Shown: positions 49,046-57,638 of the stretch, piece after piece
Layout of the letters: every line of letters starts with the position of its first letter
Numbering within the stretch: position 1 is the first letter of the stretch
Virus record (IMG/VR): IMGVR_UViG_3300045391_005035
Source: a virus
Length of the DNA: 64,000 bases
Direction: 5' to 3' (one strand)
The notes under the pieces: generated by a model
Told to the model about the DNA's origin: nothing
Database searches by the model: none
Seen by the model: only the letters and a program-made list of their open reading frames with translations
Made by a program: the position numbers and the translations under genes

Positions 49046-49522
49046 TCACGCAGCCGAGCGGTAACGCGACTTGCGCGAACGCTTGTTGCGGCGGACGTGG
49101 CGACGATTCGCCTTCACCGGACCCTTCACGTTCCAGCTCATGTAGGCGATGCCGCCGAGCACCGCGACGCCCACGCCGATCATCACCGGCCAGTACCAGT
49201 CCGGACTCGCGGAGACCGGCGGTGCGGTGGCGGTAGCCGGATCGATGGCCGGAGTCGTCGTGGCCGGAGTCGTCGTGGTCTGCTGACCCGTCGCTGCGCC
49301 GACGATGCTGCTGATGAGCGAGCCACCTGTCGTGAGCGCTGTCGACCAATCGGACGCGGTGTGATCCGCCGTCGTCGTCGTTGTCTTGGTCTGCCCGAGC
49401 CCGAAGAGCCCGTTCGCTCGGTACGGACCCTTGCCCCATCCGAAGAGGCCATGCGCCTCGTAGGGGTTGCCGAGTCCAGCTGCCGCGAAGATTCCGCGGT
49501 TGACGCGATTCGTGTAGCTCAT
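49046..49522 (-). CDS. putative virion membrane protein
   Basis: MSY, GLG x2, TM, VKAN/VRRN basic tail. Confidence 0.7.
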   Translation of the reverse strand: MSYTNRVNRGIFAAAGLGNPYEAHGLFGWGKGPYRANGLFGLGQTKTTTTTADHTASDWSTALTTGGSLISSIVGAATGQQTTTTPATTTPAIDPATATAPPVSASPDWYWPVMIGVGVAVLGGIAYMSWNVKGPVKANRRHVRRNKRSRKSRYRSAA

Positions 49523-49848
49523 CACTTCCTCTTCTTTCGGCTCTTCAGCCACCACATGACACCGGCTCCGACGAGCCCCACGCCGACCACGCCCGCGACC
49601 CCGACACCGACCACCGCGGTCTCCGTCTGCCCGAGGCCGTAAGGTGCAACGCACCCGCGGTACCGCAAACAGGGGAGCACGAGCGACGGCGGCTGGCTCC
49701 AGCACTCGGAGCACGGGCTGTAGGCGACGTAGTCGATGAAGCCGGGGCCATACCATCCGCCACGCCAGCCACGACGCACCCAGCCGTGGCCGCCGCGACG
49801 AAAGCCGCCGCGGTGGCCCGCGCCATGATGACCCCCGCCGCCACTCAC
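49522..49848 (-). CDS. putative virion membrane protein
   Basis: Gly/Arg-rich, 4 Cys, YGLGQ, TM, KSRKKRK. Confidence 0.6.
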   Translation of the reverse strand: MSGGGGHHGAGHRGGFRRGGHGWVRRGWRGGWYGPGFIDYVAYSPCSECWSQPPSLVLPCLRYRGCVAPYGLGQTETAVVGVGVAGVVGVGLVGAGVMWWLKSRKKRK

Positions 49849-50429
49849 CTGCGCCTCCGCCTGCGCCGACCGTTGTTGTTCAAGATCTTGCTGACCGTGC
49901 GGATCTTCGCCCACTGCGCGAGCACGTATCCCGTGACGCCGAGGCCGAGAATGCCGACGCCGGCCCACATGAGGCCGCGATCGCCCATGCGAGAAAACCA
50001 ATCCCCCCACGACACGTACGAGTGCGTCGAAAGGGTTGGCGCCCCGATGAGAGAACGGTATCGGACCTCGAATCCGTTGTACTCGTTCGCGAAGTTGTGC
50101 AGCGACGATGCCAGACTTCCGCTCGCATACTGACCATCCGCACGGACAGTCGACGACAGCCATTCGCGAAGTCCGGAGGCCGATGCGTCTCCGCTCGCGA
50201 CCTGAAGCTGTCGGAAGAACGGCTGCCAGCGCTGCGTGTACCAGACGAGCCACTCGTTGTAGAGGCGTGCCTTGTCGGGGCCGCCACCGAGCAGCGCGCC
50301 CGCATGGGACGTGATGTCGGTGTTCAGCGCCTGCGCCGCGGTATTGATCTGCTGCCCCGCCCCGGTCATGTCACCCGGCGTGTACAGAGACTCCGCGACC
50401 GTCACCTCTCCGAGGGCTCGGTAGCTCAT
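49845..50429 (-). CDS. putative virion membrane protein
   Basis: MSYRALG, TM, LNNNGRRRRRRR. Confidence 0.7.
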   Translation of the reverse strand: MSYRALGEVTVAESLYTPGDMTGAGQQINTAAQALNTDITSHAGALLGGGPDKARLYNEWLVWYTQRWQPFFRQLQVASGDASASGLREWLSSTVRADGQYASGSLASSLHNFANEYNGFEVRYRSLIGAPTLSTHSYVSWGDWFSRMGDRGLMWAGVGILGLGVTGYVLAQWAKIRTVSKILNNNGRRRRRRR

Positions 50430-51004
50430 CGCGCTCCCCGACGGCGACGGTTCCGAAGAAGCCGACGCCGATTCGACGCCATCTTCTTGCGGCGCATCAT
50501 CACGACGCCCGCCACGACGACGACCGAGCTGACGACAGCGACCGGCACGAGCCACGCGCTCGGGCTGCTGTCGGCTGGCGCGAGGGTCGGATCGAGCGCA
50601 GGCGGGACCGGCGTCGAGACGTACGACGTGCCGCTTGTGATCGCGGACGGAGATGGCGGCAACGGCAGGTTCGTCCGGCCGGTCACCGTCGCGAGCGCCG
50701 ACCGCGTGTTCGTGCCGTAGATCCCGTCCACCGCCAGGCCGTGGCCGTAGGCGAGCTGGAACGTGCGCACCGCGGGGATCGGCAGGCGGTTCTGTACCGC
50801 CGTCGGGTTCGCGATCACGGCGGAGATGGCCGCGTTCGCGGTCACCGTCGGATCGGTCTCCGCCAGCGTGAACGTCATGTCCGGCGCCGTCGGCGCCGCG
50901 GCGCCAAGCCCGAGCAGGCCGAACAGACCCGTCGTGCGGCGACGCTTGCCGCCGAAGCTCGCGCCTCGGTAGAACGGAGTCGATCCCAATCCTGCGTAGC
51001 TCAT
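50426..51004 (-). CDS. membrane protein with peptidoglycan-binding domain
   Basis: VRTFQLAYGHGLAVDGIYGTNTRSAL; MSYAGLG; TM; MASNRRR. Confidence 0.75.
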   Translation of the reverse strand: MSYAGLGSTPFYRGASFGGKRRRTTGLFGLLGLGAAAPTAPDMTFTLAETDPTVTANAAISAVIANPTAVQNRLPIPAVRTFQLAYGHGLAVDGIYGTNTRSALATVTGRTNLPLPPSPSAITSGTSYVSTPVPPALDPTLAPADSSPSAWLVPVAVVSSVVVVAGVVMMRRKKMASNRRRLLRNRRRRGAR

Positions 51005-51040
51005 GTTCTTCCTCAACCCTCGCGGCTCATGCCGCTGTGA

Positions 51041-55833: not shown

Positions 55834-55858
55834 GTTCTCCGTCCGCGCCCCACGCGCG

Positions 55859-56575
55859 TCAGTCGAGTACCATCCACGCAGCGCCGAGCACCGTCAGCAG
55901 GATAGCGCCGCCGACAGCCACCGTCTGAAACCGATGCTTCCGCGATGCCGCCTCGGCGGCCGCCTGCTGACTCGCGGCCACTTGCTGTGCCGCGGCGAGC
56001 TGCGCCTGTGCTCGCGCCGCCGCCGTCGCAGCATCGCGCGCTTCCTTACCACAGTCGAGCACCTGACCGGCAACGGTGCTGCCGATGCTCGTGACGAGGC
56101 CGACGATCTGCCCGTACACCGGAACGACCTGCGCCACGCCGCCGACCATGTTGGCTCCGGATGCGATCATGCATCCAGTCGCGCGATCGTCCGCGCCGCT
56201 ACCGAGACCCACGTCGACCAACGAATCCCACCCGCTGCGCGTCGCAATGTTGTGCCTGATGTTTTCGAGGCTTCGATCGAGGCGCGTGTTCGCAATCGCA
56301 AGGCGCAGAGCATCGAACGCAACCTGATCGGGATTCGCGCCGGACACCAGGCCCTTCTTCATCTCCATGAGCACAGGCGCCGATGGCACTTCCAGCTCAT
56401 CGAGCGACGATTCCATCACCTGTAGCCGACGCTCGCTAGGCACCTTCGCCATCGCGAGCATGATCGACGACGCATCCAACGACGCCTTGGCCAGCACCGG
56501 ATCGCTGAACGCGCGCTTCCCCACGCCAACGGGCGTGACGTCGCCGAGCGCTCGCGATGCCGACGCGTAGCTCAT
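55859..56575 (-). CDS. putative virion membrane protein (paralog of 56572-57324)
   Basis: MSYASASRALG; AS..ML.MA.VP...RL; DQ..FDA.R.AIA; GLG; C...C; TM. Confidence 0.7.
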   Translation of the reverse strand: MSYASASRALGDVTPVGVGKRAFSDPVLAKASLDASSIMLAMAKVPSERRLQVMESSLDELEVPSAPVLMEMKKGLVSGANPDQVAFDALRLAIANTRLDRSLENIRHNIATRSGWDSLVDVGLGSGADDRATGCMIASGANMVGGVAQVVPVYGQIVGLVTSIGSTVAGQVLDCGKEARDAATAAARAQAQLAAAQQVAASQQAAAEAASRKHRFQTVAVGGAILLTVLGAAWMVLD

Positions 56576-57324
56576 GCCGCCTTCTTCAACATGGCGTAAC
56601 CGATGCCGAGGGCGGCGATCGCGCCTCCGCCGACCAGCACGTAGCGCATGAACCGTGCGTCCGCGGCCTGCTGCATCGCGAGCGCCTGAACGGTGCCCTG
56701 CTGTGCCAGGCGCGCCTGATCGAGCGCCTGCTGTCCGCGGATCACGAGCTGCCCAGCGCCGCAGCCAGCGATCTGGCCAGCCGTCTGGGTACTCGACGTG
56801 AGCGCTCCGGTGCCAGATCCGGTACCGGTCTGATCGAGCACGCCGCCGATCATGCCGACGGTACCCGCGACGTACGAGCAGAAGATCGCGTTCGCGTCGT
56901 TGATGTTCTGACTGGTGCGGCCCTGAGCCTCGGCGATTGTCTGCCCCAGCCCGGAACCGGCCGGTCGCTGCGCCAACGTCTGCTGCACGAAGTGGTCGGC
57001 GATCGCGGCGCGGATTGCGTCGAACATCGCCTGGTCCACCTTGTTCGCCGGCGCAGTCGCCACCCGTCGAGCGAAGTCGGCGCGGGCAGAATCTCCGAGT
57101 CCACGCTGCACCGCATTGAGGGTGCGCACCATCTCGGCGAGGCGCTGACTGCGCGGCACCGACGCCATCTTCAACATGACGTTGGACGCGAGTAGCGATG
57201 CGGTCGACAGAATGGGGCTCGACTGAGCCATGGTGCCCAGCTCGATCGGAGCCTGATCCGGCACGACGGACGCACCGAGTCCCATGAGCCCACGTGCAGC
57301 ACGGCTGCGCCCTGCGTACGTCAT
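56572..57324 (-). CDS. putative virion membrane protein (paralog of 55859-56575)
   Basis: LMGLG, GSGLGQ, same internal motifs, TM, KKAA. Confidence 0.7.
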   Translation of the reverse strand: MTYAGRSRAARGLMGLGASVVPDQAPIELGTMAQSSPILSTASLLASNVMLKMASVPRSQRLAEMVRTLNAVQRGLGDSARADFARRVATAPANKVDQAMFDAIRAAIADHFVQQTLAQRPAGSGLGQTIAEAQGRTSQNINDANAIFCSYVAGTVGMIGGVLDQTGTGSGTGALTSSTQTAGQIAGCGAGQLVIRGQQALDQARLAQQGTVQALAMQQAADARFMRYVLVGGGAIAALGIGYAMLKKAA

Positions 57325-57638
57325 CGACGGCTCCTCTTCCGGTTCCGACGCATCGCGGCCGGCTTGCCGAAGCCCTGGGCAACGGCAACCGCCAGCGCGA
57401 TCGGCCACACGATGCCGCCGCCGATACCCCACGCGAGCGCCCAGCCCCACGAGTTGCTGCGACGGTAGCCGTGGTACGCGAGCGCGCCCATGGCTGCAAC
57501 GCTGGCGACGCGCAGCGCCATCATCGACGGCGACGCGAGCTGGATCGCGGTCGATGGTGTGGTCGGCGGCGTGACCGGAGCGGCCGTCTGCCCGAGGGGA
57601 GCACGAGCGTAGTAGGGAGCCTGTGCGTAGTTGCTCAT
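57321..57638 (-). CDS. small multi-TM protein
   Basis: APLGQ; AYHGYRR..S.GWAL.W; MRRNRKRSRR. Confidence 0.7.
   Translation of the reverse strand: MSNYAQAPYYARAPLGQTAAPVTPPTTPSTAIQLASPSMMALRVASVAAMGALAYHGYRRSNSWGWALAWGIGGGIVWPIALAVAVAQGFGKPAAMRRNRKRSRR

Follow-up and report, generated by a model that had tools for sequence, protein, structure and literature searches.

A short Tyr...Leu-Gly leader on unrelated helix-bearing proteins of a large soil virus and a neighbouring candidate protease

The window analysed here, a 64 kb stretch of a large uncultivated soil virus with a genome of at least 176 kb, contains a block of 16 tightly packed late genes on the minus strand (49,046–57,638). An earlier note on this DNA had described an array of about 15 membrane proteins; the block exists, but A2 (49,522–49,848) had been missed. 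All ten N-termini quoted in that note, covering the leaders of 10 of the 16 genes, were found on the minus strand of this block. Each start codon is preceded by a purine-rich Shine-Dalgarno-like stretch 5–15 nt upstream, and five gene pairs share 4-nt overlaps (ATGA or GTGA). The assigned start codons, at which the leader is N-terminal, are supported by these stretches and the tight gene packing. Eight of the 16 proteins begin with Met-(Ser/Thr/Ala)-Tyr; given a [STA]-Y dipeptide frequency of 0.0057, about 0.1 such starts would be expected among 16 genes. A search of all six frames of the entire 64 kb for ATG-(Ser/Thr/Ala)-Tyr with an open stretch of 50 or more codons behind it returned 11 occurrences, all in minus-strand frames with high GC3 and eight of them inside the array block. 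As the codon at leader position 2 varies (AGC, AGT, TCG, TCA, TCT, ACG, ACC, GCC and GCG), the leader is conserved at the protein level.

All array members are encoded on the minus strand and are described from the high-coordinate end. N (57,321–57,638; 105 aa) has Tyr at position 4 and a leader ending P-L-G-Q, followed by a helix and M-R-R-N plus a basic tail; orthologues occur in the related genomes G001, G003 and G005, and those of G001 and G003 retain Tyr ... L-G-Q. M (56,572–57,324; 250 aa) combines an M-T-Y leader, a basic spacer, G-L-M-G-L-G, an internal S-G-L-G-Q-T and a C-terminal helix with a 4-residue tail. In an alignment of 33 M homologues, both Gly residues of the second leader G-L-G and the internal G-L-G were invariant and the Q-T of the internal site was nearly invariant; the spacer varied in length and sequence, and the internal G-L-G directly followed a gap-rich stretch. 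L (55,859–56,575; 238 aa) has an M-S-Y leader ending A-L-G and a helix at the very C-terminus with a 1-residue tail. L and M (BLASTP E 3e-11) are the only detectable paralogues in the array, as the other bodies have no similarity to one another. In K (54,424–55,833; 469 aa) the N-terminal part is acidic and carries no leader, A-L-G-M-G-Q precedes the helix by 17 residues and the tail is basic; the G-M-G ahead of the helix is kept in four genomes (this one, G001, G002 and G003). The extremely basic J (54,020–54,427; 135 aa) lacks a helix and contains three copies of a V-S-K-N plus Arg-run unit, as found on the tails. In I (53,735–53,992; 85 aa), Y-P-L-Y-G ... L-G-Q ends 10 residues before the helix.

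H (53,431–53,730; 99 aa) has an M-T-Y leader ending H-L-G, a helix, and M-T-R-N plus a basic tail; its orthologues in G001, G002 and G003 likewise begin M-S-Y. G (53,051–53,419; 122 aa) has an M-A-Y leader ending L-T-G-L-G, a Pro-rich linker, a helix and V-T-P-N plus a basic tail. V-T-A-N plus a basic tail follows the helix of both F (52,077–53,054; 325 aa), which has the minimal leader M-S-Y-E-G-L-G-Q and matched no family in a Pfam search, and E (51,694–52,074; 126 aa), which has the alternative leader M-A-G-I-F ... N-L-F-D-G-L-G-Q. This alternative type takes the place of M-S-Y on one M-family homologue, P0013. D (51,041–51,682; 213 aa), conserved in G001, G002 and G003, has no leader, a mid-protein hydrophobic stretch (residues 60–83) and a soluble C-terminal half. 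C (50,426–51,004; 192 aa) has the minimal leader M-S-Y-A-G-L-G, a second unit G-L-F-G-L-L-G-L-G, a helix and M-A-S-N plus a basic tail, and gave a below-threshold Pfam match to PG_binding_1 (E 0.002). B (49,845–50,429; 194 aa) has the leader M-S-Y-R-A-L-G, a helix and I-L-N-N-N-G plus seven Arg residues. The GTG start of the Gly/Cys-rich A2 (108 aa) overlaps the B stop codon; Y-G-L-G-Q lies directly before its helix, which is followed by a short basic tail. Finally, A (49,046–49,522; 158 aa) has an M-S-Y leader, three G-(I/L)-F ... G-x-G units, the last of which ends G-L-G-Q, a Thr-rich linker, a helix and V-K-A-N plus a basic tail.

Helices and signal peptides were called by Kyte-Doolittle hydropathy alone. 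The earlier note had placed a C-terminal transmembrane segment on each protein, and a single hydrophobic helix near the C-terminus was indeed found in 13 of the 16, but the helix of D is mid-protein and J has none. The claim that no classical Sec signal peptide is present held up; the 11-residue hydropathy maximum within the first 35 residues was at most 1.6 across the array, with no Sec/Tat-type hydrophobic N-terminal region. The 13 proteins combine two features of the tail-anchored class, the lack of a signal peptide and a single C-terminal-proximal helix. Ten array proteins have 6–13 basic and zero acidic residues behind the helix, and the tail of I has four basic and two acidic residues. 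As had been noted, most helices are followed by a hydrophobic-x-x-Asn motif and a basic run (A, B, C, E, F, G, H and N, and loosely K); the tails of these eight leader proteins and K have 7–13 basic residues. Nine array members, with tails of 14–26 residues and 8–13 basic charges, differ from L and M and from most members in G002, G005 and G006, in which the tail is short and weakly charged. Tails of 2–5 residues, the classical tail-anchor form, occur in distant relatives. Because the Arg tail and x-x-Asn motif are absent from G002, G005 and G006, which retain the leader and helix, they are outside the core system and limited to one subclade. The leader is always N-terminal to the helix, and the x-x-Asn plus basic run comes after it. 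Placement of the two motifs on opposite membrane faces and contact of the Arg tails with packaged DNA, both put forward in the earlier note, are putative. The earlier wording that G-L-G lies 'mostly' N-terminal to the helix was correct and 'only' would be wrong, since G-L-G also occurs by composition inside the Gly-rich helices of B, H, M and N.

Every relative examined (contigs of 9–298 kb) had unrelated proteins with the tag and C-terminal anchor, and the tag persists in viruses with a capsid-like protein about 35% identical. Both ends recur even in relatives where the array proteins no longer match. Among the five relatives compared, B and G had no match, E and F had no full-length match, and C and F matched only G003, and only partly. 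A C-terminal helix was strongly associated with the tag in the pooled data of three genomes (odds ratio 5.2, p 8e-9); some of the tagged proteins in relatives are helix-less. The tag was also coupled to a G-L-G-type tripeptide in residues 4–30 (35/105 compared to a background of 0.11, p 8e-10). G-L-G itself was over-represented 1.9-fold and sits in variable, Thr/Pro-rich interdomain linkers. Gln directly after it was enriched 4.2-fold; at the leader site of the M family, as in many other leaders, its place is taken by Ala, Ser, Thr, Asp, Glu, Asn or Tyr. Two positions ahead of the first Gly, 16 of 31 leaders have a hydrophobic residue, compared to 2/31 and 8/31 at the neighbouring positions; the remaining leaders have Arg or a small residue there. 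Only half of the leaders have this residue, and several end A-L-G, H-L-G or P-L-G rather than G-L-G, both of which count against the explanation favoured below. Related units occur elsewhere, as internal M-Y-A-A-A-G-M-G tandem repeats in a 768-aa protein adjoining the capsid gene, as A-Y-x-D-G-S-L-G repeats in one G006 protein, and as G-(I/L)-F at the extreme C-terminus of two large capsid-gene neighbours. As only L and M are paralogous while the tag and helix recur without a cargo match, these comparisons support the view that the Tyr...Leu-Gly leader is a genuine signal under selection rather than a duplication relic. The earlier note had proposed a dedicated sorting or cleavage signal, of which this much stands on the strength of the unrelated cargo and the conservation of the tag across the group. 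Its 'modular surface-display cassette' is fair as to modularity, because the tags are constant and the cargo variable, but surface display found no support.

The earlier note had overlooked what is the most informative neighbour, a conserved transglutaminase-fold gene directly upstream of the array. This gene encodes O (57,647–58,204, minus strand), a 185-aa Cys-His-Asp enzyme without leader or helix and a candidate leader protease. O matched Pfam Transglut_core with an E-value of 6e-4, as did 36 of 50 homologues (best E 1e-16), and one homologue matched Peptidase_C71. In the alignment of 50 sequences D107, H146 and D163 were invariant and C108 was nearly invariant. The AF2 model (pLDDT 94.5) gave Foldseek matches to the putative cysteine protease 3isr, LapG, TgpA, PNGase, TG2 and PeiW/P, with probability 1.00 for 3isr, 4u65 (LapG), 6g4h and 9bc2; factor XIII was also among the fold matches. 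The fold of O can be assigned with confidence as transglutaminase-like or papain-like, and its Cys-His-Asp triad is conserved. Because transglutaminases, PNGase, the non-enzymatic Rad4 and the phage cell-wall isopeptidases PeiW and PeiP have this fold as well, protease activity of O is putative. O is a single-copy core gene in five relatives, and in six genomes it immediately precedes the array.

The explanation that we favour, tentatively and at a little under an even chance, is that the array is a membrane-protein module with constant tags around variable cargo, that the leader is bipartite, and that O is its candidate protease. The first part, Met-(Ser/Thr/Ala)-Tyr plus a variable and often Arg-rich spacer, would address the protein to the assembling particle. 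The second part, (Gly/Ala)-(Leu/Met)-Gly, often with a hydrophobic residue two positions ahead of it and with Gln and then a Thr/Pro/Ala-rich linker behind it, would be the site at which soluble O removes the tag. The internal G-(L/M)-G-Q linkers of M, K, I, A2 and the 768-aa protein would be further sites for O. The C-terminal helix would anchor the protein in the membrane in a tail-anchored manner, with cargo and leader presumably on the enzyme-accessible, capsid-facing side and the tail on the opposite side. The freedom of the M-family spacer to vary while both G-L-G sites hold, and the turnover of cargo between relatives while the tag stays, both count for this explanation. So do the non-random tag and its coupling to the helix and to a G-L-G-type tripeptide, the G-M-G kept in K, the excess of G-L-G and of the Gln behind it, the hydrophobic residue ahead of the first Gly, and the fold, triad, position and gp34 homology of O. 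If cleavage were the sole role of the leader, the retention of Met-Ser-Tyr at the very N-terminus ahead of a long spacer would be unexplained. The leader looks like a previously undescribed address-and-trimming signal for building virus particles; we found no published description of the tag in the literature. The virus itself is probably of a large, tailless, internal-membrane type; its capsid-protein model is of low confidence (pLDDT 57.6) with weak jelly-roll matches.

Other explanations were weighed against the same data. The leader could be an uncut docking peptide that binds a common hub (capsid, vertex or an enzyme-like adaptor protein) and ties the membrane proteins to the shell. The internal tandem repeats and the C-terminal G-(I/L)-F of the capsid-gene neighbours argue for docking, as a motif usable at either end suits binding better than trimming. 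However, docking explains neither the placement of the motif in variable Thr/Pro-rich linkers nor the catalytically intact Cys-His-Asp enzyme as a conserved neighbour, and we regard it as unlikely. Alternatively, a host or viral factor that recognizes the leader might keep the tail-anchored proteins soluble and insert the C-terminal helix into the host or viral membrane, which would account for the strong link between tag and helix, the absence of a Sec-type signal and the 2–5-residue tails of distant relatives. We consider such a biogenesis signal improbable, given the helix-less tagged proteins of relatives, the position of the G-x-G-Q unit beside the helix rather than at the N-terminus in K, I and A2, and the lack of any insertase or chaperone family among those found in the window. 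Inheritance of the shared ends from one duplicated ancestral gene, with no present function, would fit the clustering of the genes and the paralogy of L and M. This explanation is disfavoured and most improbable, as the other bodies are dissimilar, the tag outlives detectable cargo homology, synonymous codon variation indicates selection on the peptide, and two leader types exchange on one orthologous family.

Two further explanations assign O a different activity. Membrane phages carry virion-bound wall hydrolases, e.g. P7 and P15 of PRD1, and the pseudomurein isopeptidases of archaeal viruses have the fold of O; together with the Peptidase_C71 match of one homologue and the below-threshold PG_binding_1 match of C, this would suit a PeiW/PeiP-like cell-wall enzyme for entry or lysis, with the leader being read by some other factor. 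As neither a wall-binding domain nor a signal peptide or helix is present in O, and its fixed place at the head of a tagged array in six genomes would then be a coincidence, we have little belief in this role. O could instead be a true transglutaminase that uses the Gln after G-L-G as acyl donor to cross-link the membrane proteins with the shell or among themselves. The enrichment of this Gln and the fold matches to TG2 and factor XIII point in that direction, but a substrate Gln ought to be fixed and is replaced in many leaders while G-L-G holds, making such cross-linking very unlikely.

The favoured explanation of a bipartite leader cut by O resembles several known systems in part. The capsid targeting sequence (CTS) of T4 is a 10-residue leader on divergent cargo in which the N-terminal part targets and the C-terminal part is processed, and is thought to be a means of loading varied proteins into the particle (PMC9026906). 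Here, too, a short N-terminal peptide is common to otherwise unrelated proteins, as it is on the divergent, fast-evolving virion cargo from which the T4 prohead protease gp21 removes it. T4 is tailed with an HK97-fold capsid, and its serine protease cuts soluble cargo at Leu/Ile-x-Glu, whereas here the site would be G-(L/M)-G without Glu, the candidate enzyme has a Cys-His-Asp transglutaminase fold and the cargo is membrane-anchored. A T4-type CTS system with a gp21-type protease was rejected, as the leaders lack Leu/Ile-x-Glu and the tailed-phage hallmarks Phage_capsid, Phage_portal and Terminase_6N were found neither in the five relatives nor in the window.

Adenovirus belongs to the jelly-roll capsid lineage. 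Its protease sites are Gly-rich with a hydrophobic residue four positions upstream, e.g. I-V-G-L|G, several virion precursors carry them, and maturation releases terminal peptides and Arg-rich core peptides (PMC4246237). The hydrophobic-x-G-L-G of 16 of the 31 leaders has the same shape as this example of the adenain (MEROPS C5) sites, (M/I/L)-X-G-X|G or (M/I/L)-X-G-G|X. O differs in fold and has its catalytic residues in the reverse order, with Cys ahead of His. Searches for Peptidase_C5 or C48 gave no match in G001 and G003–G006 (E up to 1) or among the window proteins, although a very divergent member may have escaped them. LapG cuts LapA between two small residues, Ala108|Ala109 (PMC3032545). 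Like O, the bacterial transglutaminase-like cysteine proteinases (BTLCP), LapG among them, have this fold and a Cys-His-Asp triad. LapG trims off an N-terminal piece as a site-specific endoprotease; the sequence relation of O to LapG is marginal (E 1e-3). O has no signal peptide and differs from LapG, which is bacterial, periplasmic and calcium-dependent and acts on one adhesin.

As in sortase, exosortase and rhombosortase C-terminal signals, a short Gly motif in A2, I and K is followed by a helix and then by a basic cluster. Unlike those signals, the motif of most members is N-terminal, 70–290 residues from the helix, and x-x-Asn comes after rather than before the helix; no sortase-like family was found in the window. 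The last comparison is with SSIP-1, a cultured internal-membrane phage with a 44 kb genome, far smaller than that of the virus described here, and with leaders that do not begin Met-Ser-Tyr. Its gp34, a structural protein according to the GenBank annotation, is 304 aa long with its own R-G-M-G motif and a C-terminal helix, whereas O is the bare domain with neither feature and has no tag or anchor to place it in the particle. O is a true homologue of gp34 (hhalign 99.3%, E 9e-21, catalytic motifs aligned; tblastn E 2e-4), and the small proteins encoded just after gp34 have C-terminal helices and, close to the N-terminus, G-(L/M)-G.

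Between 58,204 and 49,046 every gene lies on the minus strand; the genes are close-packed in the order O, N, M, L, K, J, I, H, G, F, E, D, C, B, A2, A. The series is headed by O (57,647-58,204, minus strand), which encodes a 185-aa enzyme of transglutaminase fold, and it includes a GTG-initiated gene, A2 (49,522-49,848, minus strand), that was absent from the list in the earlier note. A purine-rich ribosome-binding stretch is found at every start, and five gene pairs overlap by 4 bases. The block is present in four soil-metagenome DNA runs, of which one may be its source, and no RNA run containing it is listed. 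A scan of all six frames of the 64-kb window, which has a G+C content of 66%, identified 11 ATG-(Ser/Thr/Ala)-Tyr starts with 50 or more open codons behind them. Eight of these fall within the block and none was in a non-coding-looking frame, while about 0.1 such start is expected among 16 genes (dipeptide frequency 0.0057). Nine different codons specify the three amino acids at position 2 and both Tyr codons are in use; we conclude that conservation acts on the peptide and not on the RNA. The possibility that Ser at position 2 is a by-product of ATGA stop-start overlaps was ruled out, as TCN, Thr and Ala codons also occur. Megablast of the block against cultured phages gave no match, a related-locus scan with K found none in viral contigs, and neither the array proteins nor ten large ones from the arrays of two related viral contigs, G001 and G003, had a Pfam family above cut-off.

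The ten leaders quoted in the earlier note were all correct. The shortest comprise 7 or 8 residues (C, F and B), and in longer ones 1-12 mostly basic residues are placed between Tyr and Leu-Gly. The leader of E is of a different type, rich in Gly-Ile/Leu-Phe, with the same G-L-G-Q ending. M (56572-57324, minus strand) has 36 homologues, 33 of which were taken into an alignment. All 20 full-length sequences start with Met-(Ser/Thr) and then Tyr, followed by a spacer variable in both length and sequence and by G-L-M-G-L-G, in which both Gly residues of the second G-L-G are invariant. A mid-protein S-G-L-G-Q-T behind a gap-rich stretch also has an invariant G-L-G and a nearly invariant Q-T. One homologue carries an E-type leader in place of the usual one. 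Several database entries of this family begin at an internal Met right before G-L-G, including P0001, which is identical to M and has lost the leader (237 aa instead of 250 aa). Thus, gene callers hide the leader, and the leaders of this family are under-counted in databases.

Comparable patterns were found in other array proteins. K has G-M-G 12-35 residues ahead of its helix in four genomes, with Gln or Glu next in three, and Tyr...Gly-Gln is kept in those relatives of I and N whose motif was readable. Across six genomes G-L-G was over-represented 1.9-fold and a Gln behind it was enriched 4.2-fold. In 16 of 31 leaders a hydrophobic residue stands two positions ahead of the first Gly, compared with 8 and 2 at the neighbouring positions. 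Tat, Sec, lipobox and prepilin signals were ruled out by the lack of a hydrophobic core, Cys or a G|F-T-L-I-E pattern. Internal repeats of the Tyr...G-(L/M)-G unit were seen as well, in one protein of the related contig G006 and in a 768-aa protein whose gene (42733-45039, minus strand) lies next to the capsid-like gene. The 768-aa protein has five G-(L/M)-G sites in residues 576-690, three of them M-Y-A-A-A-G-M-G repeats. It ends in G-G-I-F-A-R-S-I-F-G-G, and its 238-aa neighbour (41970-42686, minus strand) ends in a similar G-G-I-Y-A-R-N-I-F, as does the G001 orthologue. These endings appear to form a terminal motif akin to the E-type leader.

Kyte-Doolittle hydropathy identified a single hydrophobic stretch near the C-terminus in 13 of the 16 proteins and a hydrophobic N-terminal core in none. 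The region after the helix contains 6-13 Lys/Arg and zero Asp/Glu in ten proteins; I has four basic and two acidic residues there, and the chains of L and M stop 1 and 4 residues past the helix. In A, B, C, E, F, G, H and N the Arg run comes right after hydrophobic-x-x-Asn, and K shows a loose form of this. The exception is D, with a central helix and no leader. From these data we conclude that the order leader, cargo, helix, x-x-Asn and basic tail is real. G-L-G tripeptides within the Gly-rich helices of B, H, M and N are compositional. The window, G001 and G003 have the long Arg tail with x-x-Asn. It is missing from three further related contigs, G002, G005 and G006, where tails have 2-14 residues, and is a subclade addition outside the core system. 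J (54020-54427, minus strand), 135 aa long and composed almost entirely of Lys/Arg/Ser, lacks a helix and contains three tandem copies of V-S-K-N plus an Arg run, the same unit as in the membrane-protein tails. By analogy with adenovirus mu, J may be a DNA-condensing protein that would give short Arg peptides if cut after Asn. Several soluble late proteins (47379-48575, 48560-49042, 41970-42686, 37322-37918 and 36276-37358, all minus strand) carry Lys/Arg-Thr-Ser-Arg-rich N-terminal tags ending in x-x-Asn, a mirror image of the array tails; in two others (14578-17061 and 35401-36279) the x-x-Asn basic tag is at the C-terminus.

Relatives were collected with O, which gave two viral contigs, and with the capsid-like protein encoded at 41,009-41,788, which gave 18 IMG/VR loci and seven contigs from metagenome-assembled genomes (MAGs); one of the 18 loci is on the G001 contig already known through O. 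The comparison set consisted of G001, G002, G003 and G005 (72 to 298 kb) together with the first 100 kb of G006. Comparison with G001 and G002 gave matches to A, D, H, I, K, L, M and N and none to B, C, E, F and G. Matches in G005 and G006 were limited to two capsid-like proteins (identity of the 41,009-41,788 product about 35%), O, the 45,712-46,518 protein and a 786-aa coiled-coil protein, together with N in G005. The cargo is thus mostly unrelated and exchanged between relatives, and the tag is kept regardless. Every relative has an array of Met-(Ser/Thr/Ala)-Tyr genes downstream of O with a helix at the end, and a G-L-G-type tripeptide usually lies within 30 residues. Presence of the tag went with presence of a C-terminal helix (pooled odds ratio 5.2, p 8e-9). 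At residues 4-30, (G/A/S)-(L/M/I/F)-G was present in 35 of 105 tagged genes against a background of 0.11, a three-fold excess (p 8e-10). C (50426-51004, minus strand) has a sub-threshold PG_binding_1 match at residues 78-104 (E 0.002; 18.7 bits, cut-off 23). A genuine match would mean that the side of the membrane bearing the cargo comes into contact with the cell wall when the virus enters.

Transglut_core matched O alone weakly and 36 of 50 family members clearly. The family comprises 957 cluster representatives at E <= 1e-3. In an alignment of 50 sequences D107, H146 and D163 are invariant and C108 nearly so; the alignment was too varied to support a pattern scan. The model of O was confident (pLDDT 94.5), and its structural neighbours include 3isr (a putative cysteine protease), LapG, TglA, TgpA, PNGase and Rad4; the best solved-structure profile match was LapG (E 1e-3). 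One copy of O is present in each of five further relatives, and in each of the six genomes compared its gene sits immediately upstream of the tagged array. O is the only conserved protease-like gene; no clan CE protease was found among the proteins of the window or, at E up to 1, in G001 and G003-G006. Residues 5-17 of O read Ser-Ala-Tyr ... Ala-Tyr-Asn-Asn-Ala-Ile-Gly-Ser and are kept in G001 and G003; this faintly leader-like N-terminus (Tyr ... small-Ile-Gly) might be a self-processing site. Some homologues of O (P0158, P0159, P0160 and P0162) are 375-541 aa long, and their match is interrupted at the catalytic D-C-D region, which suggests an intein or other insertion at the active site.

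The sole match of O among 50,697 cultured phage records was gp34 of SSIP-1 (Salisaeta icosahedral phage 1), an icosahedral phage with an internal membrane and two major capsid protein types (PMC6356626). Profile comparison of the two proteins confirmed the match (99.3%, E 9e-21); the D-C-D, His and L-D-P motifs lined up. The SSIP-1 record annotates gp34 as a structural protein; it has its own R-G-M-G motif and C-terminal helix, and among the genes that follow are some for small proteins that have G-(L/M)-G close to the N-terminus and a helix at the C-terminal end. No tailed-phage hallmarks were found in the window, and Phage_capsid, Phage_portal and Terminase_6N were absent from five relatives of 90-100% estimated completeness.

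The model of the 41,009-41,788 capsid-protein candidate was beta-rich and of low confidence (pLDDT 57.6). Foldseek ranked PRD1 P3 and further jelly rolls first, at a weak E of about 0.05. In VIA-align Z did not exceed 5.4, with jelly-roll capsids mixed with sugar-binding sandwiches, and the nearest named Atlas clusters were the P2/P3 families (0.75-0.77). These results are suggestive at most. An identical copy of the capsid-like protein sits on a 176-kb contig. The capsid-like protein is also the most conserved one and the one highest in GC3; it has 257 homologues, with at least 64% identity among the matches listed. The two capsid-like neighbours had no detectable relation to each other, to solved structures by sequence or to cultured phages. 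Together, the lack of tailed-phage hallmarks, the weak jelly-roll matches and the homology of O to gp34 make a tailless membrane-containing particle the most likely setting. A HerA/DUF87-Zot type ATPase (20945-22894, minus strand), which matched the PHROG 'terminase large subunit' (E 5e-18), had no match in G001 or G002 and so cannot be taken for the core packaging enzyme. The seven MAG contigs were binned as Planctomycetota (three; L061, L065 and the 106-kb L063), Acidobacteriota, Deltaproteobacteria and Pseudomonadota (two); these labels are a weak hint of the host.

The sequence patterns fit a bipartite leader. Met-(Ser/Thr/Ala)-Tyr would be the address, being fixed at the N-terminus whatever the spacer length, and G-(L/M)-G, found also in inter-domain linkers and ahead of helices, would be the processing site, with O as the candidate trimming enzyme. 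Since O is soluble and lacks an export signal, its substrate motifs should be on the cytoplasmic, later capsid-facing, side. A tail-anchored topology would place the cargo outside the viral membrane and the C-terminal tail inside. Taken together, these two arguments make plausible the proposals in the earlier note that the motifs lie on opposite membrane faces and that the Arg tails contact DNA. The composition of J, a free basic protein made of the tail unit, points the same way. It is, however, unusual for 8-13 positive charges to cross a membrane.

Several other explanations of the tag and of O were considered. The tag could be a docking motif that stays uncut, which the internal repeats of the unit in the 768-aa protein would suit. 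A predicted complex between O and M-family residues 1-45 scored 0.01 in a run without controls and speaks neither for binding nor against it. The enriched Gln behind G-L-G could be the substrate of true transglutamination, and transglutaminase 2 is among the structural neighbours of O. A tag acting as a biogenesis signal of tail-anchored proteins is another candidate, in view of the link between tag and helix. O could instead be a wall-degrading entry enzyme unconnected with the tag. Its structural neighbours also include the viral pseudomurein isopeptidases PeiW and PeiP, but its constant place at the head of the tagged array would then be a coincidence. The least likely explanation is that the tag reflects shared ancestry and nothing more; with both ends removed, similarity was detected only between L and M (E 3e-11).

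The boldest reading, which is more probably wrong than right, is an undescribed maturation system common to bacterial membrane-containing jelly-roll-type viruses, ranging from the 44-kb SSIP-1 up to soil viruses of 300 kb. In it, a universal address tag at the N-terminus would load tail-anchored and other proteins into the particle, and a virion transglutaminase-fold cysteine protease would trim the tag at G-(L/M)-G. To our knowledge, a transglutaminase-type fold is not known for proteolytic maturation of such viruses. If true, the system would be the equivalent in prokaryotic viruses of proteolytic maturation of the adenovirus type, with a different protease fold; cutting of the tag would mean proteolytic maturation in a tailless prokaryotic virus, which would bear on the evolution of the adenovirus-containing lineage. 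A short portable tag shared by many unrelated proteins makes the question of which proteins enter the membrane of internal-membrane phages directly testable, because the cultured relative SSIP-1 carries the enzyme. The tag also corrects gene starts missed by public gene callers, marks virion membrane proteins among orphan genes and could be used to load foreign proteins into such particles.

Our literature search found no paper on the tag or on the enzyme-array pairing. A parallel is the T4 capsid targeting sequence, a 10-residue leader on divergent cargo whose N-terminal residues target and whose last residues are processed (PMC9026906); the leader described here would follow the same bipartite logic. 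The hydrophobic-x-G-L-G site resembles in shape the adenovirus protease site I-V-G-L|G (PMC4246237), and LapG, which has the same fold as O, is an endoprotease that cuts site-specifically between small residues (PMC3032545). In kind, the proposed system is a leader with a maturation enzyme, like those of T4 and adenovirus. Unlike them, it would combine a new motif, a new enzyme fold and membrane-anchored cargo in a new virus group.
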